64,000 nt of DNA from IMG/VR virus record IMGVR_UViG_3300026522_000021; one strand, 5' to 3'. Positions 8,820 through 44,100 of the stretch are shown here, one piece after another. Positions within the stretch are counted from its first letter, which is position 1. Every line of letters starts with the position of its first letter. The DNA is from a virus. Its lineage: Duplodnaviria > Caudoviricetes. The position numbers and the translations under genes are program-made. The notes below the pieces were generated by a model. That model was given only the letters and a program-made list of their open reading frames with translations, was not told the DNA's origin and ran no database searches.

Positions 8820-9445
8820 TCGTCATACCTCTCTAACTTTTGTTCTTTGGTTTTCAAAATGAAATCCCTGTATTCTTCATAGTCCTTGAACTTGATGTAT
8901 TCACCATTGATTACATCGAAACAATTTTCATTTCTGGCAAATTCATATGCGTTTGCGCTGATAACAAAGTAAATGTCTTTATTCTTTTCTGTTTCTATAA
9001 CCAATGGAATAAGACTTTCTTTTATATCAATCACATTGTCAATACTTAATCCGCTGTCAATAGCATCAAACAAGAACCATAGTTCTTTAGCATCTGGATT
9101 TTCCTGCGACATGCGCCCCATTTTTCTGGCTATATCTTCAAGAACGTTTACAATGTTTTCGCCTTCGCTACTCATCATTGTTCTTGCTACGATATCAAAA
9201 TTTCCCCAAAATGCAGCCTTACTTCTTAACTCTCTCTCGCCGTCATGCATATTGCTATGAAACAGCACAGGAATATCTTTGTTTTTCAAACTTTGATTTA
9301 TTTGATTGAGAAGTGTAGTCTTTCCTGCGCCATTACATCCAACAAGAACAGTTAGCCCTGTATTTATTTTGATTTGCTTCTTCTTAAAGATTGCAAACCC
9401 ATCATCACCATACCAATCATTTGATAATCTGAATTGTCTGCTCAT
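8816..9445 (-). CDS. ABC/AAA-type ATPase
   Basis: Walker A GCNGAGKTT, SSEGE signature-like, FLFDAID Walker B. Confidence 0.8.
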   Translation of the reverse strand: MSRQFRLSNDWYGDDGFAIFKKKQIKINTGLTVLVGCNGAGKTTLLNQINQSLKNKDIPVLFHSNMHDGERELRSKAAFWGNFDIVARTMMSSEGENIVNVLEDIARKMGRMSQENPDAKELWFLFDAIDSGLSIDNVIDIKESLIPLVIETEKNKDIYFVISANAYEFARNENCFDVINGEYIKFKDYEEYRDFILKTKEQKLERYDE

Positions 9446-9897
9446 ACTAACATTCCATCAAGAATACTACTTACAAGTTTACCATCGGCTTTGCCTTTGA
9501 CTTTAGGCATAAGCTCTTTCATAATGATGCCTTTACTTTTCTTTGTTGCTGGATTATCAGAAGTAAAGCCAAGAGACAACATGACATCTTCAATAACGGC
9601 TCTGATCTGTGTTTCATCCATCAATTCAGGAGCAAACTTCTTTAGTGTTTCTATCCTTCTCTTGCATTGCTCGATAATATCCGTCCTATCTTCTGGACAC
9701 ATATCTAATGTTTCCTGCGTCTGACGGATTTCTTTATAAACAACTTCATTCTCTTCATCTTCTGTAAGCTCACGTTGTTTATCAATCTCTGCATTCTTTA
9801 ACGCAGAAAGAAGCAATGAAAGCGTATCTTTTGTTTCTTGATCGCGAGCCTTCATTGCATCAACCATGCACATTCTTACATAATCTTCTTTCTTCAT
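9442..9897 (-). CDS. GatB/YqeY domain protein
   Basis: AMKARD..LKNAEIDK..KGIIMKELMPKVKGKADGK. Confidence 0.85.
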   Translation of the reverse strand: MKKEDYVRMCMVDAMKARDQETKDTLSLLLSALKNAEIDKQRELTEDEENEVVYKEIRQTQETLDMCPEDRTDIIEQCKRRIETLKKFAPELMDETQIRAVIEDVMLSLGFTSDNPATKKSKGIIMKELMPKVKGKADGKLVSSILDGMLV

Positions 9898-9956
9898 CTG
9901 GTTTCCTTTCTAAAAATGGCGCAGTGTATTTCAACCGCGCCATTATCTTGCCTTAT

Positions 9957-10640
9957 TTATTCATCTTTCTTTTCAGCTTTTTCCAATTCATCGAGAAGCC
10001 CTTTGAAAGACTCTTCAAGTTCTGCGGACGCTTGCTTTGATACTTCGCCGATAGCTCTCTTATATGCTTCTGTCATTTCGCGGATACGATCTTCGCGCTT
10101 CTTGTTCTCGGCTCGTCTTACTTCCTGTTTGATGGATGCAAGTTTAGCCCTTTCCTCTTTGGCTTTCTTTGCTTCTTCTTCTCTCTTTTTCTTTGTCGCG
10201 TCAAGCTTGCCCAATGCGTACTTGATAATTTTGTTGTAAGCGGACGATCCTGTGCCAATGATATCCATCTCGGAAAGCAGTTTCTTTACAACACAGATCA
10301 GAACACCAACTTCAAGGCTGAATACATCACCATCATTAAGATGCGCAACTTCTTTTGTTCCGTCTGCGAACTCAACGAATACAGTCTTGTCATTTGGATT
10401 AGATACATTAACAATGTCTGGCATGATACACGTACGTCCAATGATACCATTGTCGGCATTCAGATAACCAAGATAAAGATCACCATCTTCTGCAAAAACT
10501 GTACTTCCAACCGTGTTTTCTTCCATGCATTCTCGAAGATATGTAATCGCTTTATCTGGCAATATTAGTTCACCATTTTCATTGTAAAGTCCACATTCAA
10601 CTACTTTTGCTTCAATTCCATCCATAATTGTTTCCTCCAT
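9957..10640 (-). CDS. Hypothetical protein with coiled-coil C-terminus
   Basis: 227-aa ORF; charged helical C-terminus. Confidence 0.6.
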   Translation of the reverse strand: MEETIMDGIEAKVVECGLYNENGELILPDKAITYLRECMEENTVGSTVFAEDGDLYLGYLNADNGIIGRTCIMPDIVNVSNPNDKTVFVEFADGTKEVAHLNDGDVFSLEVGVLICVVKKLLSEMDIIGTGSSAYNKIIKYALGKLDATKKKREEEAKKAKEERAKLASIKQEVRRAENKKREDRIREMTEAYKRAIGEVSKQASAELEESFKGLLDELEKAEKKDE

Positions 10641-10660
10641 GAGTTAATTTATAGTGGCAG

Positions 10661-10741
10661 TGCGGATGAAGGGATTCGAACCCTTACGCCATTTGGCATT
10701 AGTTCCTAAGACTAACGTGGCTGCCGTTACACCACATCCGC
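10661..10741 (-). tRNA. tRNA-Leu(TAG)
   Basis: GCGGATG acceptor stem, CT-TAG-GA loop, long variable arm, GGTTCGAATCC. Confidence 0.9.
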
Positions 10742-10748
10742 AATTTAC

Positions 10749-10839
10749 AAGGCGCATTTGTTGTTTGGTGTCCTTGTCGGACAAATACGATAACCCTAAT
10801 CATCAGCTTGTAAACATTTGAAATTGCTGTATGCGCCTT
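10749..10839 (-). ncRNA. ACAGCAA-motif RNA 1 (terminal-stem type)
   Basis: AAGGCGCAT/ATGCGCCTT stem, ACAGCAA after the 5' strand, internal hairpins. Confidence 0.7.
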
Positions 10840-10884
10840 TCGATATGAGAAAATATTTAAGAATATGTAGAAATAATCTACACA

Positions 10885-10958
10885 TGGAACATACAGGACT
10901 CGAACCTGTAACTTATCGGTTATGAGCCGATTGCTCTGACCAATTGAACTAATGTTCC
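10885..10958 (-). tRNA. tRNA-CAT (probably Ile2, otherwise Met)
   Basis: GGAACAT stem, ATCGG-CTCATAA-CCGAT arm, GGTTCGAGTCC. Confidence 0.88.
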
Positions 10959-10964
10959 AAACAT

Positions 10965-11161
10965 AATCAATATCAATTCGCCTCGTCAATAATTACTCAA
11001 CCGCCGAAACGCTTTTAGTTGGTTTGCGTTGCCATCTTCGTTACTCTGCCATTACTCTTTCAAGTTCATATCCACAGCAGATATTCTTAATTTTCATGGT
11101 TTTCGCTACTTAATCCTTAACATCCTCGCCTCATTACCGGCGATTTGAATTGATATTGATT
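10965..11161. ncRNA. Putative structured RNA closed by a 15-bp perfect stem
   Basis: AATCAATATCAATTC (10965-10979) pairs with GAATTGATATTGATT (11147-11161); ORF-free, inside the tRNA operon. Confidence 0.5.
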
Positions 11162-11368
11162 TGTCCGCATTGACTCGTCCTGTTCTCAGCCCCAACAACC
11201 AGACCACCATCACGCACTATGGGCAGAACCAATCAACCGATATTCTATTACGTTGTTGCGTTCGTAATATATTAGTAAATTCTGGTGCGTCAGTCATCAT
11301 AAGTGAATAAGTATATATCATTTCAACTTATTCCATCCTTGTTTACGGATGCTTTACTTATTTCTGAT

Positions 11369-11449
11369 TGCGATGATTTGGATTCGAACCAATACCTCGC
11401 CCACGTTTCCCATGTCTACAGGCGTATGCTACCTTTTACAACACACCGC
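11369..11449 (-). ncRNA. tRNA-like RNA with expanded anticodon arm
   Basis: GCGGTG/CATCGC acceptor, GGTTCGAATCC T-arm; CGCC/GGCG stem encloses TGTAGA plus a CATG-GGAAA-CGTG hairpin. Confidence 0.6.
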
Positions 11450-11583
11450 TTTTCAGTTATTCCATACCTTTACATCTGTACTATGGTTAGCTACACCATC
11501 GCCACCCTCACACTTTTGTTAATCTTTCCCTTAATGCTATTCTCTGGATAACTTTTCTGAATTATTCGCGATATAATTCATAG

Positions 11584-11665
11584 TGCTTGCGGAGGGAGTC
11601 GAACCCTCAATCCGTCTGGCGTGTGAGCTTAAATCACATGTGTATTCCATTTCCACCACGCAAGC
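11584..11665 (-). tRNA. tRNA-Leu(TAA)
   Basis: GCTTGCG stem, TT-TAA-GC loop, long variable arm, GGTTCGACTCC. Confidence 0.88.
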
Positions 11666-11705
11666 ATGTGTGTAAAGACCCTTACAATAAACTTTACACG
11701 TATTT

Positions 11706-11807
11706 TGTTTAGCGACCTCAAGAAAGTAAACCAAATGACAACATACACACTGAAACACAAAGCACAAATCTATTTATAGGAGGAGATACCACTATGGCGC
11801 TAAAACA
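11706..11807 (-). ncRNA. Putative antisense sRNA complementary to the shared early-gene leader and RBS
   Basis: Terminal stem TGTTTTAGCG/CGCTAAACA; loop contains CAT..CTCCTCCT..TTTGTGCTTTGTGT..GTGTATGTTGT..GTTTACTT. Confidence 0.55.
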
Positions 11808-11824
11808 GGTTTTAGAAATCTTAA

Positions 11825-11952
11825 CAGCGAGGACAGGACTCGAACCTGTAACCTACGGCTTCCTGAATGCGTAACGTTAAAATTGCTGCGCGTATCTAAT
11901 ACAAGATACGTTGTTTGTTTTTACGTTGCTCTGCCAGTTGAGCTACCTCGCT
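11825..11952 (-). ncRNA. ACAGCAA-motif RNA 2 (tRNA-scaffold chimera)
   Basis: AGCGAGG acceptor, canonical D- and T-arms; insert hairpin CGTATCT/AGATACG followed by CGCAGCAA. Confidence 0.8.
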
Positions 11953-12022
11953 GATGTTGTGGATGTGGCAATGGAAAACCAAGGCAAGAACCCACATCCA
12001 CTAATATGAGTGTTCTGAAAAC

Positions 12023-12088
12023 TAAGCGCATATAAAACTTTATCAATGACTGTCAGAAAAAGATTTTATAGTTTGCTGTTCGCGCTTA
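12023..12088 (-). ncRNA. ACAGCAA-motif RNA 3 (terminal-stem type)
   Basis: TAAGCGC-GA-ACAGCAA...GCGCTTA; directly downstream of the DUF2828 gene. Confidence 0.7.
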
Positions 12089-12098
12089 AATCTATGAT

Positions 12099-13598
12099 TT
12101 ACAGTAATCCTTCTACGGCTTCTCTTACTTTCGCGTAGCGTTCTCCATTCAGCGTTTCAAGAAGAACTTTGTAAGGATCAACCTGATTGCTCATGAACAT
12201 CTTCAGGATTTGAACCGAAAATCCACTGCAAAGAATAAGCCCCATATCATTCTGTTGCATCGGGATTGTTCCATTCAAGCGACCGCTTAAATTCCAGAAA
12301 CAAATCTTCGGAAGTTTATATCCTGCGTCCTCGAATTCCTGTGCGATTTCATCAAACAGGCTCTTGTTGAGATTGTGTGAACGACCGTCAAACTGCATGT
12401 CGGAACAAATCACGATCATCTTCGGCATATCTTCCGCAGAAGTATGATTTCTCTTTGCTGTTTTCAGGATCAGCATCATAGTCTTATAGATGTTCGTGTT
12501 TGAACAATCGGATTCGCGCAAGGAAAGATCAACTTTATCTGCAAGCGAATCGCAATTTGACAGATCGACAATCTTCGGATTGGATGAGAAGGTAATAAAC
12601 TTATCTTTCCAATCGCCTGTATTGTGTTCTGACATGTAAATTGCAAGTGCGGTTGCTACATCTAAAGGTGTACCACTTCCTGCAAAACTTCCCCATGTCA
12701 TAGAACCAGAACCATCACGAACAATCAGTGTGTTCTCTACAGACAGATCAGGAAGTGCCTTCCACAGCGCTTCGAGCGTTGCATCTTTTCTGCATCTATT
12801 CTGGCGATACTTCAGGCAGATCTCATGCGGATTAAGCGTGCTTGCGTTAATCTTTGCAGTGCCTTTTTCAAGCGATGCAAGATATTCGCGTCTACGATCC
12901 TCATCATTCCGTAAGAATGCGCTATTGTAGATCAGATTAGCTTTAGAAGGCACAGTTTCATAATTGATCTTATCCCATTTCTTAGCACTCATTTTGACCT
13001 CTACAACATCAAGATACTTTCTAAGTTTGGATAAAGTCTTTCTGTACTTCTTCTCTGTCCATCCAAGTTCACGGCAGATTGTTTTAGCTCTGTCAACTGT
13101 TATCTTGGATGATGCATTGACGCTCGGCATCCACTTCGCACACAGAGAAATCGACTTGCCTTCCTTCATGTTGGCTTTATCTTCTTTCAGCTGCGCCTTG
13201 ATTAAAGCGATTGCCTTTCCTCTCGTTCTTTCATCGTCAAGCATAACCATGACGCTATCCCAACGATTATAGAATGGGATAAGATCAATGATAGCCTTTG
13301 CGATCTTCGGCTGTTTTTCTGCAAGATAGCTCAGTCCAGCTCTGAAAGCTTTTCTCTCACCAAGTCCTTCACGGACATCGCCAAGATAGAAAAGATATTC
13401 AAGCGCTGTCAGCTTATCCTCAAAGAAAACTTTCATGAAATCTTCTTTGATCGCTTCAGGAAATCTGTTACGCATAGCAGATACTCCAAAGTTGAAATCA
13501 AGAAGTTTCTTTCCTGCTGTTGCATAGGCGATCGCGCCGTTTGTGGTTACTGATTTGCGAGTGTTCAATTCATTTTGCATTTCATCGAAGAAACTCAT
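12099..13598 (-). CDS. DUF2828-family TROVE/Ro60-like protein with C-terminal vWA domain
   Basis: TTNGAIAY, DVREGLGER, SLCAKWMPS; MIDAS RDGSGSM; SDMQFD; FWNL. Confidence 0.85.
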   Translation of the reverse strand: MSFFDEMQNELNTRKSVTTNGAIAYATAGKKLLDFNFGVSAMRNRFPEAIKEDFMKVFFEDKLTALEYLFYLGDVREGLGERKAFRAGLSYLAEKQPKIAKAIIDLIPFYNRWDSVMVMLDDERTRGKAIALIKAQLKEDKANMKEGKSISLCAKWMPSVNASSKITVDRAKTICRELGWTEKKYRKTLSKLRKYLDVVEVKMSAKKWDKINYETVPSKANLIYNSAFLRNDEDRRREYLASLEKGTAKINASTLNPHEICLKYRQNRCRKDATLEALWKALPDLSVENTLIVRDGSGSMTWGSFAGSGTPLDVATALAIYMSEHNTGDWKDKFITFSSNPKIVDLSNCDSLADKVDLSLRESDCSNTNIYKTMMLILKTAKRNHTSAEDMPKMIVICSDMQFDGRSHNLNKSLFDEIAQEFEDAGYKLPKICFWNLSGRLNGTIPMQQNDMGLILCSGFSVQILKMFMSNQVDPYKVLLETLNGERYAKVREAVEGLL

Positions 13599-13639
13599 AA
13601 TTGCTTTACCTCTCTTTTCTTAATTTGTGGTTGCAATTC

Positions 13640-13704
13640 AAGGCACTGGTTGTGGTTGTAAGATTAAAAGTCTTATCCATAATAGTGGTTGCTGTATGTG
13701 CCTT
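13640..13704 (-). ncRNA. ACAGCAA-motif RNA 4 displaying a Lys(UUU) anticodon stem-loop
   Basis: AAGGCAC-AT-ACAGCAA...TAAGA-CTTTTAA-TCTTA...GTGCCTT. Confidence 0.8.
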
Positions 13705-13712
13705 AAATGTAT

Positions 13713-13830
13713 AGCGCACGATTGGATTCGAACCAATGACAAATTCTTCTGTGTATTAAGTTGCTGATTGCGATTATCGCTAACCGCGTTTAACAAATTA
13801 AAACTGCACTACCAACTGTGCTACGTGCGC
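13713..13830 (-). ncRNA. ACAGCAA-motif RNA 5 (tRNA-scaffold chimera, no anticodon loop)
   Basis: GCGCACG acceptor, D- and T-arms; insert GCGGTTA-GCGA-TAATCGC-AA-TCAGCAA. Confidence 0.8.
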
Positions 13831-13846
13831 CATCCCTTTCGGGAAA

Positions 13847-14002
13847 CAGCAGTGACAGGAATCGAACCTGTGCTTGCAGCTTGACCAAGTAAACTTGCTG
13901 TGTGTTCCTTTAATTCCCCGACTCTAACTCGTCTATGCGGTTACTCTCGGTGGTAACAAGAAACATTTATATGCTGCCGTGTTCCCACTTCACTACACTG
14001 CC
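13847..14002 (-). ncRNA. ACAGCAA-motif RNA 6 (tRNA-scaffold chimera, large insert)
   Basis: GGCAGTG/CACTGCT acceptor; GCAGC/GCTGC stem encloses a TGTTTCTT/AAGGAACA helix followed by CACAGCAA; GGTTCGATTCC. Confidence 0.8.
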
Positions 14003-14005
14003 GCG

Positions 14006-14130
14006 CCCATCGTGAAGGATTCGAACCTTCCCCTCAAGTTTTGCAGACTTGTAATTGATATATAACTTTGCTGTAGGTGTTTACACTAAACACACAATCA
14101 AAAGATATGCTACCTCTACACCAACGATGG
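14006..14130 (-). ncRNA. ACAGCAA-motif RNA 7 (tRNA chimera retaining a Cys(GCA) anticodon arm)
   Basis: CCATCGT acceptor; insert GTGTTTA-GTG-TAAACAC-CT-ACAGCAA; then CAAGT-CTGCAAA-ACTTG; T-arm. Confidence 0.8.
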
Positions 14131-14148
14131 GATATTCAATTTTTAAAC

Positions 14149-14212
14149 AAGACGCTATGATGGTAATATAAGTTAACAGCTTATTCCTTCATATAATTGC
14201 TGTATGCGTCTT
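14149..14212 (-). ncRNA. ACAGCAA-motif RNA 8 displaying an Asn(GUU) anticodon stem-loop
   Basis: AAGACGC-AT-ACAGCAA...ATAAG-CTGTTAA-CTTAT...GCGTCTT. Confidence 0.8.
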
Positions 14213-14225
14213 TCAGTTTTAACAC

Positions 14226-14315
14226 AAGGCACTTTATTTTGATGGACTTGAACCATCTCGCAAAGACTTTGAATGTTTTTACTTTAACCGATGTTAAGTT
14301 TGCTGTATGTGCCTT
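14226..14315 (-). ncRNA. ACAGCAA-motif RNA 9 (motif stem in place of acceptor stem; D-, anticodon- and T-like arms)
   Basis: AAGGCAC-AT-ACAGCAA, ACTT-AACATCGGTTA-AAGT, AAAAC-ATTCAAA-GTCTT, GATGG-TTCAAGT-CCATC, GTGCCTT. Confidence 0.75.
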
Positions 14316-14336
14316 TCTTGTTATCTTGCAATACCT

Positions 14337-14365
14337 ATTATAGCATATCGTTCTCGGCTTTGCAA
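14337..14365 (-). promoter_or_regulatory. sigmaA promoter driving the ACAGCAA-RNA/DUF2828 operon
   Basis: TTGCAA-17-TATAAT with extended TG; about 20 nt upstream of RNA 9. Confidence 0.8.
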
Positions 14366-14478
14366 GTATTATTTTGAATTATTTTTAATGTAGTTTTGAT
14401 TTCTCGCGATCACTACAAGCGCACAGTTTCTTACTTTTTATGATGTTAGTTTAGAACTGCAAAAGCAACCATTCATCG

Positions 14479-14551
14479 TGCGCCAGATGGGACTCGAACC
14501 CATGACTTTTCGATTAAAAGTCGAATACTCTACCATCTGAGTTACTGGCGC
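14479..14551 (-). tRNA. tRNA-Lys(TTT)
   Basis: GCGCCAG stem, TTCGA-CTTTTAA-TCGAA, GGTTCGAGTCC. Confidence 0.93.
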
Positions 14552-14555
14552 GTAA

Positions 14556-14629
14556 CAGGCGCAGTAGGAATTGAACCCACGCTCACGCAGCTTTGGAGGC
14601 TGGTAGACTTCCAATTATCTTATACGCCT
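14556..14629 (-). tRNA. tRNA-Trp(CCA)
   Basis: AGGCGTA stem, CAGC-CTCCAAA-GCTG, GGTTCAATTCC. Confidence 0.85.
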
Positions 14630-14633
14630 TTAG

Positions 14634-14953
14634 TGGAGTAGAGGGGAATCGAACCCCTGTCCAAAACTACTCTATAAATATCCTTTACGCCGTTTGGGTT
14701 TGTACTGATCTGAATTTACAGATTCAACTCCGTCTGTCCACCACCTGTTTCACCGTCTTGTATAACAGGAACTTCAATCAGACATTACTTCGATCTTCAG
14801 CATTGACCGTCTAAAAGAATTACTGAAGATAGATGTGGCTCACGCCGCCATCCGATTTTCTGTATAATCAGCGTTTATATTTAGGTTTGATGATTAAGTC
14901 ATCACTCTGGCGAGATATTTACTTTGTAACCCTGTCGAAACCTTTACTACCCC
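14634..14953 (-). ncRNA. ssrA: tmRNA; predicted tag (A)ADYTENRMAA* at 14872-14840
   Basis: 5' GGGGTAGTAAAGGTTTCGAC, 3' GACAGGGGTTCGATTCCCCTCTACTCCA with G3.U70; ATAAAC-GCT resume context; tag ends in AA. Confidence 0.92.
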
Positions 14954-14961
14954 ATATATAA

Positions 14962-15032
14962 CAGCGGTTGAGGGTAATGCTCCCCCTTGTTCTGGGTCAA
15001 AGCCAGACGTATTACTTTTATACTAAACCGCT
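14962..15032 (-). tRNA. tRNA-Gln(TTG) with non-canonical T-loop
   Basis: AGCGGTT stem, TCTGG-CTTTGAC-CCAGA, T-loop AGCATTA. Confidence 0.8.
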
Positions 15033-15040
15033 AAAACTTC

Positions 15041-15148
15041 TTGCAAAAACAATCTGGTTATGGTAATATAGTAAATGCCATCATTAGTTTGGTGTGCTTT
15101 GTGTATGTGGTAGGGAGTTGGCTTTGTGCCTTCTCCCTATCTTTGTTT
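15041..15148 (+). ncRNA. Promoter-sRNA-terminator unit antisense to the early-gene leader motif
   Basis: TTGCAA-17-TAATAT (15041-15069, extended TG); core GTGTGCTTTGTGTATGTGG; TAGGGAG..CTCCCTA hairpin plus T-rich tail. Confidence 0.6.
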
Positions 15149-15162
15149 CCTTCGACTCTTAT

Positions 15163-15191
15163 AGTGTACCACATGTGAATATATTCGTCAA
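15163..15191 (-). promoter_or_regulatory. sigmaA promoter for the tRNA/tmRNA cluster
   Basis: TTGACG-17-TACACT with extended TG. Confidence 0.7.
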
Positions 15192-15215
15192 GCATTATTT
15201 TGCATTATTTATAAA

Positions 15216-15593
15216 CTAATCACAATAGCCTTTAATTAGCTCTAAACCGTATTTATCCAAGACCTTCTCAACCGCATCCCAATAATATCTTCCACAATCT
15301 TCATTGTCGATAACAAATACATTCTCATATTTCGGTTCTTCTTCGTCAGTCCAGCTGTAAATCTGATAAGGTACATCAATATATTCTTTGATCCTAAAAT
15401 GTCCAACACCGTTTCCAGTTACGTCAGACCAATCAAATTCATCTTCATCTTCATCTTCATCGCTCCAATGTTTATACTCTTCATTCGCCATTTCCAGAAG
15501 AATATCAAGCAACCGTCCGCGTGTAACTTTGTCTCTGGATATAATGAAGCTGCTTGAACTACTGTTGGTTACAAAGTCTCTTCTAATCTTCAT
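15216..15593 (-). CDS. NSSSSS-leader protein 1
   Basis: MKIRRDFVTNSSSSSFII; acidic body. Confidence 0.85.
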   Translation of the reverse strand: MKIRRDFVTNSSSSSFIISRDKVTRGRLLDILLEMANEEYKHWSDEDEDEDEFDWSDVTGNGVGHFRIKEYIDVPYQIYSWTDEEEPKYENVFVIDNEDCGRYYWDAVEKVLDKYGLELIKGYCD

Positions 15594-16177
15594 TAAAATC
15601 TCTCCAATGACTCTTTGAAATCATGATACGTCTTGTACTTTTCTTTCCACGATGCTTGAATATCGCCAAGTTTCAAACCATATTTGTCAACCACATAAGC
15701 GATATACTCATAATCGTATAGCTTACGTCTACGCTTATTCTGCTTTTTAATTTCCTCAAAAACTTCATCCTTCGGATCTTTATACTGTGTTAATAGATAG
15801 CTTGCCATATCATAAGAAGAATACTCTTCAAACTGGCAGATCGGACACAGGCATTCTGGCACTTCATAATATCTTTCTGATCCTAAAAGCGTTTCGAATA
15901 ATTCATCATCATCCATTGCTTCAAGCTCTTCACGAGTATAATGAAGATCATATTCTCTGGTTTCTTCATTCCAATAATCGTTTTTCAAAATTTCATTTAT
16001 TTGTTCTTCGCGTGAAGGGTTGAGCATATGCTCCTGACATAATACATGCCCATTTTCACATTCAAACATATCAAAATCTTCTACACTTGCATCCCATCCA
16101 GAACCTTCAGCGCCGCAAATCTCACATACAAAACTACTGGATGAGCTATTCGTCACAAAGTCTTTTCTAAATTTCAT
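15593..16177 (-). CDS. NSSSSS-leader protein 2 (Cys-rich, probable Zn-binding)
   Basis: MKFRKDFVTNSSSSSFVCEICG..CENGH..CPIC. Confidence 0.85.
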   Translation of the reverse strand: MKFRKDFVTNSSSSSFVCEICGAEGSGWDASVEDFDMFECENGHVLCQEHMLNPSREEQINEILKNDYWNEETREYDLHYTREELEAMDDDELFETLLGSERYYEVPECLCPICQFEEYSSYDMASYLLTQYKDPKDEVFEEIKKQNKRRRKLYDYEYIAYVVDKYGLKLGDIQASWKEKYKTYHDFKESLERF

Positions 16178-16178
16178 A

Positions 16179-16451
16179 TTAACTCCAACTAAATTTTACT
16201 GCCGTTGTTGGCACACCTATCAATTCAAGAAATCTTTGCATATCAAAATTATCTATAATGGTATAACCATGTATAAAATATTCGCCTTCATCTATCTGCC
16301 AGTAATCATCAAGATAATAATCTGGCATTATTTCAGGGGCATAATCTTGATAGTTAAATATCTTTTCCTTTTGTTCATCAGTAATAGCAGACTTCGCTAT
16401 TACGAAACTGCTACTACTGCTATTGGTCACAAAGTCAAATCTTATCTTCAT
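16179..16451 (-). CDS. NSSSSS-leader protein 3
   Basis: MKIRFDFVTNSSSSSFVI; start moved to 16451 by alignment with its paralogues. Confidence 0.85.
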   Translation of the reverse strand: MKIRFDFVTNSSSSSFVIAKSAITDEQKEKIFNYQDYAPEIMPDYYLDDYWQIDEGEYFIHGYTIIDNFDMQRFLELIGVPTTAVKFSWS

Positions 16452-16459
16452 TGTTTCCC

Positions 16460-16927
16460 TCAATGATGACTAAATCTTTGGATAGTGCAATCAAGTCTCG
16501 GCATAATTTCATGCTCCAAATCGCCGTTACAATGGTCATCATATTCTACAAGTGCGAGATAACCAAGTCCTTCGATCTTCTGTTTGAATTCTTCAAACCA
16601 CACATCAAGCCTTTCATTTACAGCCTTATCGAACTCATTTTTGTTTTCTGGCTTCTCAATCCAGTCATAGAAATCATGCCACCCAAGCTTTCTTTCGTAT
16701 TCATGCTCAAGAATATACCTTGCATCCCAATACATTTCATCTTTGAACTCATGCAAAGCTTCTTCTTTTGTAATTTTATTTCTCTTGACATCGTTCAACA
16801 CGGTATCAAATCTTTCGCCTAAGTAAAGCTCGTTTCTAAGTGCTTGCTCAACACTTCCTTCATCTTTAAATCCTACAATAAAACTACTGCTGCTCGAATT
16901 TGTAACATAATCTACTCTAATTTTCAT
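16460..16927 (-). CDS. NSSSSS-leader protein 4
   Basis: MKIRVDYVTNSSSSSFIV. Confidence 0.85.
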   Translation of the reverse strand: MKIRVDYVTNSSSSSFIVGFKDEGSVEQALRNELYLGERFDTVLNDVKRNKITKEEALHEFKDEMYWDARYILEHEYERKLGWHDFYDWIEKPENKNEFDKAVNERLDVWFEEFKQKIEGLGYLALVEYDDHCNGDLEHEIMPRLDCTIQRFSHH

Positions 16928-17352
16928 CAGTCATCTCCAGCAAGAATAATGAAATCATCGGATTTTAATTTTAAAAATAGCTCTCCTCTATAATCATCGT
17001 AAGCTATATCTTTCATTAAAATCTTGTATCCTTCATTCATCTTTTCTACACACTCATCATAAGTATCTCTAACCCAAGGATCATCTTTACATAACTCTTC
17101 AAATGTTTCGCACCCATACCCATAATCTTCAAAGAAATAGCGGCGCAAATCTTCCTTGTTTTCAAAAACTTCACTTTCTGTTGTTTCGTATGAGCCTCCG
17201 CTGCCCATCACAGCTTCTTTCACTATTCCCTGATACACTTCAAGAAATGGATATTTCTTCAATGTATCATTATCAATTTCTGGCAAACCTTTAAATGCTA
17301 CAATAAAGCTACTGCTGCTTGAATTCGTAACAAAATCATTTCTTATTTTCAT
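16927..17352 (-). CDS. NSSSSS-leader protein 5
   Basis: MKIRNDFVTNSSSSSFIV. Confidence 0.85.
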   Translation of the reverse strand: MKIRNDFVTNSSSSSFIVAFKGLPEIDNDTLKKYPFLEVYQGIVKEAVMGSGGSYETTESEVFENKEDLRRYFFEDYGYGCETFEELCKDDPWVRDTYDECVEKMNEGYKILMKDIAYDDYRGELFLKLKSDDFIILAGDD

Positions 17353-27706: not shown

Positions 27707-28857
27707 TTACATGTCTACTTCTTCAGGCTCGTTCATGAAGTCAGAAGAAACATCCTCATGTTTTTCAATATCGGATTTTTCTGCTTCTTCAACGCCATCA
27801 TCTTCATGTTCATCGGATGCCTCGATATCCACATCATCGAAGAACCGATCCCATACCTTTTCGATCTCATCATGTCTGCGCTTGATATTCGCGTTCTTTG
27901 CAGAACCACCCTTGCAAGCATCGGAGTAAGCATCGGACACGATCACGCCATTTCCGAAAAGTTCTACCATGAAATCGCCCATCAGCTTATCAGAAATCTC
28001 ATCATCAATAGCCTGTTTGATCCACGGAACAAGCGAGATCATATGCGTTTCAGAAACCATTTTCTTTCTAACAGCCTTCGCAACCTTCGCATTGTCGTAC
28101 TCCTCAAGCACATTATAGATTGCGTAAATCTTATCCAGAACAGAAACGACCTCATCGCGCTCGGCATCGCTCATCTTCGTTTCCTGCATCACTTCGTTGA
28201 AAGTTCTGCTTTCAAAAGATACATCATCAATGTCCTCGTTCAGCATCATCCATACCTTCATGATGATCGGGAGCTGCTTTCTGGTTGCAAGCGCCTTTTC
28301 GGTCATGGTGTTCTGGAAAAGCTCATGCTTTCCAATATCAGAAACGGTGATGATGTCAACACAGTTAGCAATGTTGCGCTCTTTAGTGGAAAGGGGCTTT
28401 CCATTGTTCAGCTTCGCGAACAGCATCCGAACCTGTTCAGGAGTGATATCCTCGTAATAGTAGATCGTCAGGTGATAATCCTTGATTGCATCCTGAATCT
28501 CTTCGGGAAGGTCTTTAAAGTATTTCCCTTCAAGCCATTCCGTCTGCTCATTGCCCTCTGCATCAGTATATGTAATCTCAGGAACGCCAATCAGGTAATA
28601 CTCGTTCTCGATGAAGCCACGAATAGCATTGATGCGCTGCTTTCCATCAAGGAAATCATATGTTCTTCCGTCAACCTTCTTTGCGTAAAATGGCGGTACA
28701 GGATATCCTTCAATCAGGGAATGAATCAGGTTACTCTTCCTTGTCTGTTCCCATACATAGGATCTCTGGATGATATTGTCGAAACTGAATGTTCCGTTTC
28801 CTGCCATTTTCGCGATCTGCTTACAACTCCATGTAATGTTTGCTTTGTTAAGTGCCA
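27707..28857 (-). CDS. DUF262 (GmrSD/ParB-like) domain protein
   Basis: IQRSYVW, LIHSLIEGYPVP, LDGKQR, FAKLNNGKPL; start placed at MALNKA after GGAGG. Confidence 0.85.
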
Positions 28858-28974
28858 TTTCTTTATCCTCCTTTGTTTGATTTGCTTTGTGTTCTTTGTT
28901 TACTACCTCTCTATGTGAACATGTTACCACATAAAGAGGTAGATGTCAACTATTATTTTGAATTATTTTTTAAT

Positions 28975-29898
28975 TTATTTAATCAAGCTGTCAACCAATC
29001 CCATGATATCATTGATTGCTTCGATATGGACAGATGCTTCAGTCGCGTTTGCGTTTCTCTGTCCTTCAGAATAAGCCATTGCGATTATGTCTCGCAGATC
29101 GGAAACCTCGATGCTGATAACTGGCTTGTCAGAAACTTCTTTATATTCTTTATCACCTGTCACATAGTCATCAAAGAAACCGCCCATATCATCATAATAC
29201 TGATTGACTTTTTCTTTGGTTAATCCGATATAATGTTTAGTAGTTTTTGTATCGGAGTGATTGTAGATCGTCTGCAACAATTCCATGCTGTCATAATCAT
29301 TCGGATGGATCATTCTGGAGATCATACCGAAAGTTTTTCTTGTGCTATGCGTCCCAACATTATAGGTAATTCCGATAACATCTGCTGCTTTCTTCAGCGC
29401 CTTGCGATAACCATCGCTGGTGATGACTGTTCCTCTATGCGTCCCTGTCAGCTGCATGAACACGTATTCGTGATAGCCATTCTTCTCAGGTTTTACACCA
29501 GTCTTTTCAATGTACTTTTCAATAGCTTTTTTACAAGCGCTATTGATACGAGGATTCGCAAGCTTGTCTGTTTTATCCTCTACAATCTCAAGGATCTCAT
29601 CTCTGATTTTCCCTGTCTGCGGATTGTAAAGATGCTCCCATGTAAGATTGAGTGTATCGCCAACGCGCCTCGCCATGTTGCATCCTAAGATGAAGAGCAG
29701 ATAGTGAAGCCACATCTCATTCTCTTCAAAGTATTCGATCATCTTCTTCATATCTTCCAACTGGAACGGATATACTTCAGACTTGCGACCTTTCTTTTTA
29801 TTATTGGCTTTTTTCTCCTGACGAGGGAATTCAATGATGCTCGAATACCCTGTTCTTTCTTCCGTATCATTCCAGATATTCAATGCTCTGACTGCCAT
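28975..29898 (-). CDS. Tyrosine recombinase (YopP-like)
   Basis: ARRVGDTLNL, HSTRKTFG, NHS..TKHYIG. Confidence 0.9.
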   Translation of the reverse strand: MAVRALNIWNDTEERTGYSSIIEFPRQEKKANNKKKGRKSEVYPFQLEDMKKMIEYFEENEMWLHYLLFILGCNMARRVGDTLNLTWEHLYNPQTGKIRDEILEIVEDKTDKLANPRINSACKKAIEKYIEKTGVKPEKNGYHEYVFMQLTGTHRGTVITSDGYRKALKKAADVIGITYNVGTHSTRKTFGMISRMIHPNDYDSMELLQTIYNHSDTKTTKHYIGLTKEKVNQYYDDMGGFFDDYVTGDKEYKEVSDKPVISIEVSDLRDIIAMAYSEGQRNANATEASVHIEAINDIMGLVDSLIK

Positions 29899-32643: not shown

Positions 32644-33798
32644 TTATGCCACCTGCCTTTTGACAAATTCCACATTATCTTCGTTGATATTGACTGGCAA
32701 AATCAGGAATTCATATGTTTCATCCATAATCATAATTGGTTTCTTGAAACTATATGCGCCTTTTATTTCAGCTTCTTCAGAGAATGCACCGCAAGCATCC
32801 ATGATGAAACGAGGATTTACACCTACATACCATTCATGCCCCATACCGTATTCAGCTTCTACATTTTCCAGAACATCAGATGTACGATAGTTCGCAACCT
32901 GTACGCCTGTCGCAACGCTACCATTATTATTATAAAAGATCATCGGAGCTTTATTGTCCTTTGTGACAACTTTAGAATACTCTTTTGCAATATTCAAAAG
33001 TTCTTTTGTGTTGAACCTATATGTATATTCACTTCCAGAACGAACATCGCCAGTAAGTTTTTCATAATTGAAATATTCACCATCCAACAGGCGCGATGTC
33101 AGAACATAATCCTCACCTATGAATTCAACATATTTATCATTGGCATAAACTTCGATACTCTTATCATCATCCTTTGTTTTTCCAATCAGACTTTTAAGCG
33201 CACTATATACAGTGCCATCAAGGTTAAGTCCTCGTGCATTTGGCGCAAACATTCCACCAACAAGATTAGCCATGCCGATTCTGTGACCGTCCAGTGTAAC
33301 AATTCTCCGATTAGAAAGATCAAGATAGAAAGCTGTCATCATTTTGTTTGCTTCTTCCTCTGACCTTGCACAATTCAGAATGGAAAGATGTTTCAGGAAC
33401 TCGTTCTCTGACTGAATACAAACAATATTATTGTTTCCGATTGAAGGCTTCTCAATCCATATATCATCATAATCAGTATGACAAGGGATTTCATAGCTCT
33501 TCTTTGAACTTCTAATGTCAAGTTTTAAATCGGAGACAGTAATAATAATATCGTCATTGATTGCAAGAATTTTCTTTAAGTCAGAAAGCAAAACCCAAGC
33601 AACGCCATCCTCATATACGTTTGCATATACTTTTATCGTTGCGTAATTCGTTGAGTCAGTGGCAGAAAATTCCACATTGTTTCCGTGAGCTTCGATCTTT
33701 ACACATTCCATAACCTGAAGCGCCGTTCTTTTCGGTACGATACCGCCGATTCTGTCAACCAGAGTTTTGAAATCTTTTCCATAAATCTGAAATTTCAT
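32644..33798 (-). CDS. dnaN: DNA polymerase III beta (sliding clamp)-like protein
   Basis: 384 aa; SATD, VTLDGHRI, SRLLDGEYFNY, NPRFIMDA, FLILPV. Confidence 0.85.
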   Translation of the reverse strand: MKFQIYGKDFKTLVDRIGGIVPKRTALQVMECVKIEAHGNNVEFSATDSTNYATIKVYANVYEDGVAWVLLSDLKKILAINDDIIITVSDLKLDIRSSKKSYEIPCHTDYDDIWIEKPSIGNNNIVCIQSENEFLKHLSILNCARSEEEANKMMTAFYLDLSNRRIVTLDGHRIGMANLVGGMFAPNARGLNLDGTVYSALKSLIGKTKDDDKSIEVYANDKYVEFIGEDYVLTSRLLDGEYFNYEKLTGDVRSGSEYTYRFNTKELLNIAKEYSKVVTKDNKAPMIFYNNNGSVATGVQVANYRTSDVLENVEAEYGMGHEWYVGVNPRFIMDACGAFSEEAEIKGAYSFKKPIMIMDETYEFLILPVNINEDNVEFVKRQVA

Positions 33799-37983: not shown

Positions 37984-38670
37984 TTAAATCGCGACAGATA
38001 ATTTTCCATGTGGATTGAACTTGCGCCCTTCCTGATAACCGTCATCTCTAACATCGCTGTAAACTGTATGTCTGCTCTGGTATCTATCCGTCACAAAGTT
38101 AGAACATGCCTCATTGACTTCTTTCGGAACGATCATGACAAGACCCCATCCGCTCTCGTCCTGTTCTTTCTTGATCTTCTGCTCATCAAATGCGACCTTA
38201 ACACCTCTCGCAAATCCGATAGCATAGGAATTTTTGATCCTATTCTTTTCCGCTGAAGTGTAACGCTGCCATCCGTCAAGATTTTTCAGATATGATTTTC
38301 CGCAGCTTCTCGCCGTATCAACTGCATACTCAAAAATCTTTGCGCAGATATCAACGTCACCTTCCAGACCTACAAAAATAATAGTTCTTTTCTGTCCTCT
38401 GAAATTCTTATTTCCAGCTGACCGACAGCAATAATTTTCCGCTATGATATTGGCAAGACTGCCGATCCACCATTCGCCGCGCTTGGTGTATTCGTATTCC
38501 GTAATGATGCGCTTGACGTTCTTATTCTTTGCTTCAATCAAATCGACCTCGGCGATCTTGTGTTCTGCCATCAATTCTTTAGCTTTCAGGAGCGCCGCCT
38601 TTGCTTCATGTTCGTTGTTGCTTTCTGCCAGTACAAGAAGTTTCTTGATCTTTTCCTTATAGTCTTTCAT
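37984..38670 (-). CDS. DUF2786 domain protein
   Basis: KIKKLLVLAES.NEHEAKAALLKAKELMAEH; start after AAAGGAG. Confidence 0.8.
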   Translation of the reverse strand: MKDYKEKIKKLLVLAESNNEHEAKAALLKAKELMAEHKIAEVDLIEAKNKNVKRIITEYEYTKRGEWWIGSLANIIAENYCCRSAGNKNFRGQKRTIIFVGLEGDVDICAKIFEYAVDTARSCGKSYLKNLDGWQRYTSAEKNRIKNSYAIGFARGVKVAFDEQKIKKEQDESGWGLVMIVPKEVNEACSNFVTDRYQSRHTVYSDVRDDGYQEGRKFNPHGKLSVAI

Positions 38671-38972
38671 TGTGGATCTCCTTTCGATGCGTTTGTGTAT
38701 GTGATTTATCATCTGTAAACACTATACCACACAAAAATAGATATTGCAAGCGTTATTTTGAATTATTTTTAATTTTTTATAATCGGCTTTTTCTGCACGA
38801 TGCGCCGCAAAATTTCCACGTTTTGAAAAACATCAACTTACTGATTTGATTTTTGAAAATCAAACTTATTTGCAACAAATAAAAGAAGGGCATCACTGCC
38901 CCTCTATGATCCCCATGTCATTACATAACATGAAGATATAACTATATCTGTTTTCTTTGTTCATCACGTTAA

Positions 38973-39374: not shown

Positions 39375-40055
39375 TCTGTAACACCTCCGCTATTATTTTT
39401 TAGAAAGAGCAACCACTGTTGTACTATACTTCATCCCCCTATGGCTGCGCGATTGATGTATCAGAGGGAACAACATTTTCGCGAAACTATGAATAAAACA
39501 ACTCTTCATATTAAATCATCCGAACGTGCGACCGTTAATAGTTATCTTCATCGGAATAATCATTGCTGTAACTTCTGTGAAAAGCTCTCGGAGCTGATCG
39601 CAATGGATTTCTTTGAATGATTTAACCTCCGTATCTTTCGCGTCCTTCCATCCGTTTCCAGTTTTGACATAGCGGTTCATATTAAATGTGGCATTTGTGT
39701 GCCGATAGAAACGCATGTTATAAGTATCGCTGTCGTGATTATAACGGATCTCGCACCTGTTCGCCTTGCTACCATTTCTCGGAATATTCATTACCAGAAA
39801 ATCCTGATCCCCTGATGAATGAAAATTGCTGCATCCTGTGCAAGCGATAAACTTTCTTCCTCCAAGCTGAACTAAAATTTCCTCTGCGATTGTCATTGTG
39901 GCTTCCTCCTTCGCTTTGTGTATGTTGTTTACTTGCTGACTATAATATAACTCCTCTTCTGCATATTGTCAAGTATTATTTTGAAATATTTTTAAAAGGT
40001 TTCTTACACACATTTATATTGTTTTTGAAAACTGAATTTTTCTGTATGGGGAAAT

Positions 40056-41139: not shown

Positions 41140-44100
41140 ATACTGTACCTCCTTTGTGTATGTTGTTTATAGGATAGCACATTCATACTATCCTGTCAAT
41201 AGTTATCTTGTGTTATTTCTTTTCCATGTCAATGATGAATTTTTCCTTCACCTGACTCGGAAACATCGTATCGCCCCATGCCGAATAGCCTTTAACATAT
41301 TTGCTTTCAATCTTCCGATTGCCTTTATAGATTGCCCACATCGGCGCAAATCCGCGCTCGTAGATTGCCGTATATGTTTCGCCTTTATATTCGATCTTAA
41401 ATCTGTATGCTCTTTTCATAATCCACCTCCGCAAATTTTCCTAATATTGAAAAACATTACAATACTGCGATCAAAGTTTCCAATGCTTTATAGCATTCCT
41501 TTGCTGTCATTACAGGGCTGCATCTTCTACCCCAATGCAGAACGGTATACATTCCTGACTCCTGATATACTTCGAGCTTGTGCCTGTTATTCCTTCCTTC
41601 TTTGTTGTATTCTTCCAGCAGCTTGTCAATCTTTCCTTTGTATTGCATCATTCTACCTTCTTCCCATCAACAATATCAAAATAAATCTGATTAAAAGTAT
41701 CATTTGGCTCTGCTATCACAAGTCCAACTCCTGCGCGATCTACCGCTAAATACTCGCCATGTGGAGTCTGTATTACTTTGTATGGATAAGAACCTAAAAT
41801 ACGCTTCTCTGAATCTAAAGTCTTTCCAAGATACTCTTTAACGTTCGCCGTTGATAATCTCATCTTTTCCACCTCCTTAAAAGATAAATCCTGCTTTATA
41901 CAGTTTGTCGATTGCGCGATCCACGCTCTCGAAAACCCTGATTGCCTGATCTTCCAGAACCGCGACAACATCGCCCTCTTTGGTTTCGTATATAACGACT
42001 TCTTCATCATGGAAATTAACCATTCTTTCCACTTCTTCAGACTGCGCGATGAATACCTTATATTTTCCCAACTTCATACCAGAGAATGTATCGTTCACGC
42101 GCTTAACCGCATCCTCAAAAGCTGTACCCATGCCAAAAGCCTCATAGAAATAATACTGACCGCCTTCAGTTTCAACGCCGATACCCTGATACATTTCCAT
42201 CAGTCTTTCCATTCTTTCCTTCGTCATTGTTTTATCCTCCTATGATCTGGCGCTTTAACTACAAATCGTTTTCAATCAACCAACGGCGCTCGGCTCGTCA
42301 ATCAACCGTTTTATAGAAATGTGCGTTGCTGTGTTTGTGTGTATCTCGTTTACTTGCTAACACTATAACTCACATTTCTGATCTTGTCAATACCTAATTC
42401 AAAAATTTATTTGCATTATTTATTATTTTTCAAGAATGGATTTTTCTGCGCCACGTTCACCAGAATATAATAGTTTGGCAAAATTAGAAATTTCTGCCGA
42501 TGTGCTTTGCAAAACTCTTTTGTTTTTCAAAACTGAATTTTTCTGTGGCTATGAGTTTTAGTTTTTGAAAATCAAAATTTTCTGTTGCACAAAAAGAAGA
42601 AGCTCCGAAGAGCTTCATCCTACGAATATGATTTCATTCTTTCCTCTTGTGTTCACATAGATTTTGAACTGATTGTGTCGCTTCTCTACCATCAAGATAT
42701 TTTCTGCTTTTGTGCGCTTGTATCCTTTTCTTTTCCTGACGATTGAAAGAACCAAAGAAGGATCATAGTTGACTTTATACATATTCTTTTCGTATTCCCA
42801 ATATGCATGGCTTCTTTCTCTTTCAACTGCATTCATAATCTTATATGTTTCCTCGTCATCCGTGAAAACATTCTTGTATTTGAAGAACTTGAATGCCGTG
42901 AAATTTTCCTCTTCAGAACTTGGATAATAAACGCCGCCACGATCATTTTTAACAGGCTTGCAAACCCTTACAACGATCTCGCATAATCCGCGATCATAAC
43001 GCCTGAATGCTTCTCTGCAAGCTGCGCCAGTCGTGATATAAATAATAATCCTTGCGCCATCATCAGCCAGTAAATCAGTATGACAATCAAACTCACTACA
43101 AGAATAATTATTCTGCGAAAAATCGAACCTTGCTCCATTGGATATGTACTCGGATACCAGATTAGAATAAACCTTTTCAATATCTTTCTTTGTGTATAAC
43201 ATTTTCTTCCTCCTTATCTACGATAGATGCAACCAGTCCAAACCTTTTCAACAGTGCCAGCGCACTCGCAATTCTTACAACCATTACAGATTGAATTGCA
43301 TTTATCACTCTTGAAAGTGTCAAGATGCTTGTATGCTGTTTTCCTGAGTCTGAGAATTGTTTTTTCTGCATCTTCCAGTCTTTCAAAAATTCCACCATTG
43401 CAAGGACTTGTCATATAATTATATGTGACCATGTAACCGCGTCCGTTTTCCATCTTCTCGATGATTGCCATATCCGTGACCGCCACATCTTGAAACCTTG
43501 CAACTACATTTTTGTATCTTTCCATTAAGTTAGCCATATCGTTTCCTCCTGTGCGTTTGTGTATTTGATTTACTATATAGTAACTCGGATCAATAAATAT
43601 GTCAAGATAATTTTTGAATTATTTTAGTTTTTTGATATTCAATTTTTCTGCTGACTGCATCGCAATTTTCCATAGTTTTCCAAAACTATTTTCAATCGTG
43701 CGCCATGTGCGATGATCTATAGTTTTCCAAAACTGAATTTTCCTGTTAAGCCAAAAGAAGAAGCGGATCTCTCCGCTCCTGTCTTCATCTTGCTTCGTAT
43801 GTTCTTTTCTGTAGCTTGGCTCTCTTGTCTATTATTGCCATGCTGTTATAGAACTTTGTCGCTTCTGCTTCAGTGTCGAATGTCCTGCAATACTCCGCGC
43901 CTGTTGTATGAAAATATACTTGCCAGATTGTGACCATCTTATTGTCTCCCTTCTGTATTATCTTGCTTTGCTTATCCTTCATAACGATCATGTAAAGCCA
44001 TCGGTCTATCACCAAAATGCTCTCTGAAACGACTATCGGAAGTATAAATGAATGAGCCTCCCATCATCCACCATCTACCCGGATGCGCAATCGGATAGGC

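Follow-up and report, generated by a model that had tools for sequence, protein, structure and literature searches.

Phages P1 and P7 encode an antisense RNA, c4, that RNase P processes out of a longer precursor and that masks a ribosome-binding site of phage genes. In phage T4, the endoribonuclease RegB inactivates the phage's own early mRNAs via the Shine-Dalgarno (SD) region (GGAG). Y RNAs are built from a terminal stem and a large pyrimidine-rich loop. (For context, see PMC4201824.) Firmicutes have C-rich anti-SD sRNAs, RsaE/RoxS, whose pyrimidine tracts pair with the SD from exposed loops. In enterobacteria, the sRNA GcvB uses its G/U-rich R1 region to silence ACA/CA-rich translation enhancers beside the SD (PMC3879156). 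RNAs encoded between phage tRNAs also exist, namely PAK_P3 sRNA2 and T4 band C/D (PMC4933390), and the E. coli RNA 3′ETS-leuZ is released from a tRNA operon (reviewed in PMC8383071).

Here we analyze a spacer in the tRNA operon of an uncultured phage represented by a stretch of 64,000 nucleotides (the window) and also present in bovine, sheep and other gut metagenomes. Its GGAGG ribosome-binding sites are the only indication of the host, which is probably a Firmicute. Genes from ~1 to 50.4 kb of the window lie on the − strand, and among them, at 10.6-15.1 kb, is a − strand cluster of tRNAs, tmRNA and tRNA-like RNAs in which a gene for a Ro-like protein is embedded. The spacer module begins about 280-300 nt downstream of the Ro-like gene, between a tRNA-like body and tRNA-Leu. 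A blastn search of 10500-12100 against cultured phage genomes returned tRNA matches only, and scans of IMG/VR by the Ro-like protein and by the spacer pattern returned zero matches. The principal landmarks are:

53136-55919: YonO/RdRP-like RNA polymerase
12099-13598, − strand: Ro-like DUF2828-DUF7788-vWA protein
11825-11952, − strand: tRNA-like body with an expanded anticodon arm ('chimera 2'), upstream flank of the module (Rfam tRNA, 46.8 bits)
11583-11665, − strand: tRNA-Leu(UAA), downstream flank of the module (ARAGORN and Rfam)

The module has about an even chance, in our estimation, of being a multi-target antisense RNA that is cut from a tRNA precursor and shuts down early mRNAs, and in this predicted role it can be compared with each of the systems above. 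With GcvB it shares an exposed G/U-rich tract complementary to CA-rich sites directly upstream of, and including, the ribosome-binding sites of many mRNAs, and by analogy translational silencing would be the expected outcome. It differs from GcvB in having no sequence or structure homology to it (no Rfam match), in being phage-encoded, in carrying a full anti-SD and in its predicted targets, which are the phage's own early genes; moreover, its seed lies in a stem-closed loop rather than in a linear region, and a tRNA operon would supply it in place of a dedicated promoter and terminator. Because the host is probably a Firmicute, a dependence on Hfq is doubtful.

Like 3′ETS-leuZ, T4 band C/D and PAK_P3 sRNA2, the module lies between tRNA or tRNA-like genes of the same strand, has neither promoter nor terminator of its own and is proposed to be released by the tRNA-processing machinery. 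However, 3′ETS-leuZ sponges sRNAs rather than mRNA leaders, and T4 band C/D and PAK_P3 sRNA2 have no known targets, whereas the module has a conserved class of candidate targets that can be named and followed across lineages. The likeness to c4 is that of a phage antisense RNA directed, as proposed for the module, from a precursor against a ribosome-binding site, but c4 is a separate RNA family (no Rfam match for the module) that controls a single operon (icd-ant), chiefly its own transcript, in prophage immunity, whereas at least a dozen targets are predicted here. T4 RegB has the same purpose as that proposed for the module, the inactivation of early mRNAs, but RegB is a protein nuclease and the module would be a base-pairing RNA. 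RsaE/RoxS also expose pyrimidine tracts in loops for pairing with the SD; they differ in using short CCCC motifs in several hairpin loops against host metabolic mRNAs, whereas the complement in the module is long and composite, extends ~50 nt upstream of the SD and has no Rfam match. Finally, the module adjoins a Ro60-type gene (the Ro-like protein at 12099-13598), which recalls Y RNA/YrlA, but in contrast to YrlA it lacks a tRNA-like domain, its stem sequence is not conserved and no model matches it.

Several other features were observed in the cluster and in related phages. The tmRNA is the top-abundance RNA of the 10600-15100 region in metatranscriptomes, and its tag peptide, ADYTENRMAA in the window, is near-identical in relatives (ADYTENRMVA, ADYEENRMVA; window 10600-15100 and L011-L032). 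A further − strand tRNA-like body at 11380-11505, with an acceptor and T arm and a greatly expanded middle, was missed by ARAGORN and by the Rfam tRNA model; an RNA contig covers 11368-11495. In relatives, the early region contains a gene for a PemK/MazF-type endoribonuclease toxin close downstream of a GmrSD_N gene (L059:9480-9911, L060:11379-11798, L062:7187-7651); the GmrSD_N gene of the window is at 27707-28930.

A conserved, covarying RNA module in the tRNA operon

To describe the module beyond a single sequence, loci were collected around exact and related copies of the Ro-like protein, which has thousands of metagenomic homologues. The module was found as 13 distinct sequence variants in related rumen and gut phages whose Ro-like proteins are 55-100% identical. 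All 13 share one architecture: the 3′ end of a tRNA or tRNA-like element (T arm, acceptor), CAAAACC, a closing stem (7-12 bp) whose two arms enclose a loop of 44-81 nt, a RAAAU linker and an 8-bp hairpin with an invariant AAGUU..GGUCUU loop. Where a tRNA was found downstream, it lies within ~40 nt (window, L011, L015, L018a, L022, L032). In the window, the parts are, in − strand order:

11808-11815, − strand: single-stranded CUAAAACC (core AAAACC), directly 5′ of the closing stem; columns 3-8 are (near-)invariant in alignments A4 and A5
11796-11804, − strand: 5′ arm of the closing stem; UUUAGCG pairs, and the following two positions are C-U and C-G
11717-11795, − strand: 79-nt loop that is the anti-leader itself; most of it is predicted to be open
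11778-11785, − strand: CUCCUCCU, anti-SD tract resembling the 3′ end of 16S rRNA
11738-11768, − strand: UG-rich tract UUUGUGCUUUGUGU ... GUGUGUAUGUUGU, complement of leader blocks ACATACACA and ACACAAAGCA
11724-11731, − strand: GUUUACUU, complement of the 5′ end of early transcripts (AGUAAAC)
11708-11716, − strand: 3′ arm of the closing stem (helix 1)
11700-11707, − strand: A-rich linker CAAAAUAC, conserved as RAAAU
11670-11699, − strand: hairpin 2, an 8-bp stem GUGUAAAG / CUUUACAC with the conserved loop AAGUU..GGUCUU, ending 4 nt before tRNA-Leu

The terminal stem that a reading of the window's sequence alone (the sequence-only reading) had proposed is present as 7 bp between 11798-11804 and 11708-11714, and the 13 variants establish it as the covarying closing stem of a conserved structured RNA rather than a feature of the window only. 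Its sequence differs by lineage yet pairs in each (for example UUUAGCG, UUAACACU, UCAGCAC, GUACCAC, CCAACAUA, GUUAUCAAUAAA). In helix 1 of model R1, which is this closing stem, compensatory changes occur in 9 of 9 pairs and 95% of cells are paired; in helix 2 the corresponding values are 6 of 8 pairs and 100%. A covariance model was built from nine sequences and all matches were realigned with it (alignment A6), giving 97.4% paired cells over both stems and changes on both sides in 15 of 17 pairs. These pair counts took in two weak matches to the covariance model (L044 and L020 (−) 12646-12761; E = 0.36 and 0.97) that are probably false, and an alignment fitted to a model favors structure; the arms are nonetheless visible by eye in the raw sequences. 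None of 500 shuffles attained the observed values, and sliding the partners by 1-3 columns reduced pairing to 32-50%.

An Rfam cmscan of 9000-17000 at E up to 1 returned tRNA, tmRNA and chance matches and nothing over 11668-11815; in the same scan, the GcvB, C4, RsaE/RoxS and Y_RNA/YrlA covariance models gave no match to the module. We conclude that the module is a structured RNA family absent from Rfam and well supported by covariation. The molecule itself would be ~150 nt long, putatively read from the − strand of the interval that separates the tRNA-like element from tRNA-Leu.

The loop is the variable part of the module. CCUCC is found in 12 of the 13 variants, often as (A/C)CCUCCUUU, like the 3′ end of 16S rRNA, with L020 having CCUCUC, and a UG-rich tract follows the anti-SD tract in the loop of every variant, although its length and repeat number differ among relatives. 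The GUUUACUU element occurs in the L011, L013, L019 and L022 types as well as in that of the window and is missing in L014, L020 and L032. The centroid fold of the window's module retains the closing stem and hairpin 2 only, and the mean predicted probability of being unpaired is 0.49 for the loop and 0.65 at CCUCC; across variants, CCUCC is predicted to be unpaired with a probability of 0.37-1.0 and the closing stem to be paired with one of 0.45-0.98. The single-sequence fold is not more stable than shuffled sequences (z = +0.96), a result that we counted neither way since a module consisting mainly of open loop should show no extra stability.

Two relatives show the module in altered surroundings. 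In L008 (L008:1960-2841), which is 97.7% identical over the spacer, a 254-aa ORF replaces the sequence from tRNA-Leu onward and the module is retained. L018 has two diverged copies (L018:1837-1951 and L018:2117-2229), the second directly behind a canonical tRNA-Met.

Complementarity of the loop to early leaders

Between 28.9 and 50.4 kb, the window has ~15 sigma-70-like promoters, each followed by a short leader with the consensus ATAGTAAAn..A(C/A)ATACACAAAGCA..AAGGAGG..ATG. These leaders are the proposed targets:

28860-50410, − strand: ~15 early leaders, downstream of TTGACA-17-TAnnnT promoters
39904-39937, 48124-48171, 46231-46252 and 38674-38715, − strand: example leaders

Read on the + strand, 11706-11807 contains four blocks of the early leaders in leader order, AGTAAA(C), ACATACACA, ACACAAAGCA and AGGAGG. 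The sequence-only reading had picked out these blocks, and we find AAGTAAAC at 11724-11731, ACAACATACAC at 11738-11748, ACACAAAGCAC at 11755-11765 and AGGAGGAG at 11778-11785, followed by ATG at 11794-11796. The two 11-mers among these blocks are enriched in the window, with 10 and 11 matches (≤1 mismatch) against ~0.9 expected, and their matches are mostly on the − strand, directly downstream of the sigma-70-like promoters of early genes. Among + strand windows of 102 nt, 11706-11807 ranks first in 11-mer coverage (25 nt, compared with 14 for the next); its leader-likeness was reached in 1 of 100 block shuffles, and the 11-mer scan found no such leader-like window in the sense orientation. 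Sharing of 8-mers was uninformative for detecting the element because the leaders are of low complexity. The earlier claim that the loop is antisense to early leaders is borne out by ordered complementarity to all 15 leaders compared: each of them has 2-5 blocks of ≥6 nt in common with the reverse complement of the loop, in matching order, and the best single match is 21 of 22 nt, to the leader at 46231-46252.

The element had also been described as a colinear copy of a consensus leader. The block order agrees with that description, but the element is a stretched composite rather than a plain copy. The distance from AGTAAAC to ATG is 70 nt in the spacer element compared with 35-55 nt in real leaders, two core blocks that overlap in real leaders are separated, and a profile HMM of the 15 leaders gave no end-to-end alignment to the element (E = 71). 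'Composite' therefore fits the element, because its core blocks are pulled apart and the leader HMM fails to align. Likewise, an 'anti-AUG' is present in the window but otherwise only in its closest relatives, and so is not a general feature of the module.

Predicted pairing of the loop is stronger with the start regions of genes at 28-50.6 kb than with start regions elsewhere (median −33.5 vs −27.4 kcal/mol; Mann-Whitney p = 0.0002), although the duplex energies are inflated because UG-rich and CA-rich sequences of low complexity are being paired. The strongest pairing is predicted for the leaders of the genes at 37984-38670, 28975-29898, 43214-43537, 32644-33798 and 39516-39896.

A check suggested by the sequence-only reading was whether homologous loops follow the leader motif of their own phage. 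Early leaders were gathered by walking upstream in three other phage types, and the leader motifs differ: ATACACAAAGCA in the window and L011 types, AAACACACAT in L020 and AACACACA(A/C)..CGGAGG in L014. Four leaders were drawn per phage to equalize the size of the sets, and coverage of each loop by shared 9-mers (8-mers for L014) was determined. The window loop is covered over 19.6 nt by its own leaders and over 0 nt by those of L014 or L020. The L020 loop is covered over 24.3 nt by its own leaders, 9.3 nt by those of the window and 0 nt by those of L014, and for the L014 loop (K = 8) the values are 20.0 nt for its own leaders and 6-10 nt for the others. In the sense orientation, the loops have no k-mers in common with leaders at K = 8 or 9. 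In this small sample, homologues show a cognate preference in three independent lineages. In addition, the unusual CCUCUCUUUUA of L020 is exactly complementary to UAAAAGAGAGG, which lies in the leader of L020's own tRNA operon, and the L032 loop likewise reflects the AUAACAACA..AACAC motif found in the leader of the L032 operon. Taken together, these comparisons are suggestive of a loop that tracks its own leaders in three or four lineages; recombination between leader copies is an alternative explanation. A cognate matrix computed with RNAduplex was noisy because long CA/UG tracts pair promiscuously; in it the CA-rich leader of L020 pairs well with every loop, and the 120-nt window taken for L022 missed its sense element.

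Strand of transcription and alternative roles

The unit had been placed on the transcribed strand of the tRNA cluster, and the tRNA-like body and tRNA-Leu that flank it are indeed both on the − strand, as are all neighboring tRNAs and genes. When the stems of the 13 members are read on the − strand, there are four G-U cells compared with one A-C cell, and G-U pairs occur in hairpin 2 of L022 and L032. These counts lean toward transcription of the module from the − strand. As the sequence-only reading had it, no promoter was found upstream on the + strand; a promoter search inside the spacer also found none.

The RNA data are unstranded Logan contigs of metatranscriptomes, in which contig ends need not be RNA ends. 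One RNA-library contig (X11; 11702-12941) joins the Ro-like ORF to the loop and ends in the A-rich linker, and its stop at 11702 is a weak hint of an RNA end; an apparent end at 11703 in an X12 contig was rejected as such, since it is a clipped variant. A second RNA-library contig covers 11622-11822. RNA depth over the spacer is ~6-10, similar to that of the Ro-like ORF and far below that of 11004-11340 and of tmRNA. One run, X1, covers everything evenly and probably contains DNA, and uncovered parts in X7, X11 and X12 are uninformative. The region 11004-11340 itself has a depth of 60-150 in contigs of three metatranscriptome studies, 10-20 times that of the Ro-like ORF, and is 92% identical in L014 despite diverged flanks. 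It has no Rfam match and its folding energy is ordinary, so it is either an abundant RNA of no known family or a case of cross-mapping from a widely conserved element.

One alternative to an antisense role is that the module is a protein-binding scaffold, either a Y-RNA-like partner of the Ro-like protein or a ligand for some other RNA-binding protein. In that case the binding sites would be the closing stem and hairpin 2, the U/G-rich loop a tether, and the likeness to leaders a by-product of composition. The position of the module in an ncRNA-rich operon, ~300 nt past the Ro-like gene, is consistent with this idea, as is its plan of a terminal stem and large loop, which resembles that of Y RNAs; the invariant loop of hairpin 2 and the conserved CAAAACC and RAAAU flanks would suit recognition by a protein or an RNase. 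However, Rfam gives no Y_RNA or YrlA match, the module is without the CAGCAA motif ascribed to the operon's other ncRNAs, and the ordered blocks, the exact anti-SD and lineage-specific matches such as CCUCUCUUUUA of L020 go beyond what composition by itself accounts for. We consider a scaffold unlikely, although it deserves to be taken seriously.

The loop might also act in cis on its own precursor by pairing with a leader-like element 3.4 kb upstream in the same transcript:

15074-15111, − strand: leader-like sense element, CA-rich, in the 5′-terminal part of the tRNA operon transcript, following a sigma-70-like promoter (15191-15163) and then a hairpin

Long-range helices serve RNase III-type maturation in rRNA operons, and here such a helix could either direct maturation of that type or mask a spurious ribosome-binding site carried by the ncRNA precursor. 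The sense element behind the hairpin, upstream of tRNA-Gln, is conserved in seven relatives, and cognate duplexes are predicted to be more stable than those of shuffled loops in the window (−39.4 vs −28.7 ± 4.4 kcal/mol), L020 (−35.6 vs −17.9 ± 3.0) and L014 (−34.4 vs −25.2 ± 3.8 kcal/mol). The anti-SD variant of L020 fits, among the L020 leaders, only this 5′ operon element. On the other hand, the window's own 5′ element has no SD as a partner for CUCCUCCU, the operon may be divided by an internal promoter (14365-14337), the module is present twice in L018, and many early leaders match the loop as well as, or better than, the operon leader does. A cis-acting processing element thus strikes us as distinctly unlikely, while 15074-15111 itself might pair with the loop, in cis or in trans. 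The promoter, hairpin and sense element at 15074-15191 (−) also provide a simpler description of this region than the + strand 'first anti-leader' sRNA of the sequence-only reading.

A further idea is that the loop serves as a guide that, together with the Ro-like (DUF2828-vWA) protein and the tRNA-like RNAs, would direct a ribonucleoprotein or exonuclease to early mRNAs that bear the leader. We think this very unlikely; if true, the phage would remove its early transcripts by means of an RNA-guided machine that co-evolves with their leader motif.

The two remaining explanations are poorly supported, and each seems to us highly improbable. In the first, the element would be a + strand leader and ribosome-binding site driving a small ORF, of 26 codons in the window, one of the outcomes that the sequence-only reading had named as overturning it. 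There is a strong SD on the + strand and an ATG, GTG or TTG lies 3-13 nt downstream in most variants, but the ORFs are 5, 8, 12, 20, 24, 26, 33, 49, 52 and ≥61 codons long, L020 is without a start codon, the GTG starts belong to the covarying stem, and the peptides are unrelated or are an antisense reading of the T arm of the tRNA-like element (GFEP). Since start codon, length and peptide are not conserved and a + strand promoter is absent, the case for the 26-codon ORF fails, and the G-U pairs favor the opposite strand. In the second, the element would be a functionless relic, an inverted piece of a promoter-leader cassette left by a rearrangement or by a lost mobile gene. It does resemble a promoterless leader in the wrong orientation, and adjacent gene content varies by strain (the 254-aa ORF of L008 in place of tRNA-Leu), but the module occupies the same place in phages down to 55% identity of the Ro-like protein, compensatory changes maintain its stems, its flanking motifs are invariant and L008 retains it despite the changed neighbor. 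Also rejected were a terminator, since the − strand stems are not followed by a U tract, a riboswitch or T-box leader, for which downstream ORF logic is lacking, and a MazF/PemK site decoy, for which there is no evidence.

A proposed route from tRNA precursor to early mRNAs

In the multi-target antisense reading, the spacer RNA would be made from the − strand within the precursor that contains the tRNAs and the Ro-like gene, and would be freed by tRNA-processing enzymes, RNase Z-type upstream and RNase P downstream. The 3′ end of chimera 2 would set the 5′ end of the RNA through RNase Z-type cleavage, and RNase P cleavage at the 5′ end of tRNA-Leu would release it. The freed RNA may then accumulate as a stable species in which the closing stem and hairpin 2 hold the 79-nt loop open. 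The loop, as a stretched composite complement of early 5′ leaders from transcript start to ribosome-binding site, could pair with many early mRNAs in the infected cell, forming several short helices that involve both their CA-rich, enhancer-like region and their SD. Such pairing would block 30S binding and possibly trigger decay, and early expression would be damped or shut off. Early-type promoters drive the operon that contains the module, so a simple 'late shut-off' timing is not evident.

If this reading is correct, a promoterless RNA in a tRNA-operon spacer would be matched to a leader 'barcode' carried by ~15 early transcripts, and one small RNA would end the early phase in an uncultured family of rumen and gut phages, where T4 uses the RegB nuclease. 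It would also provide a defined target set for the poorly understood inter-tRNA phage RNAs (T4 band C/D, PAK_P3 sRNA2) and would help to account for anti-SD loops in phage tRNA arrays.
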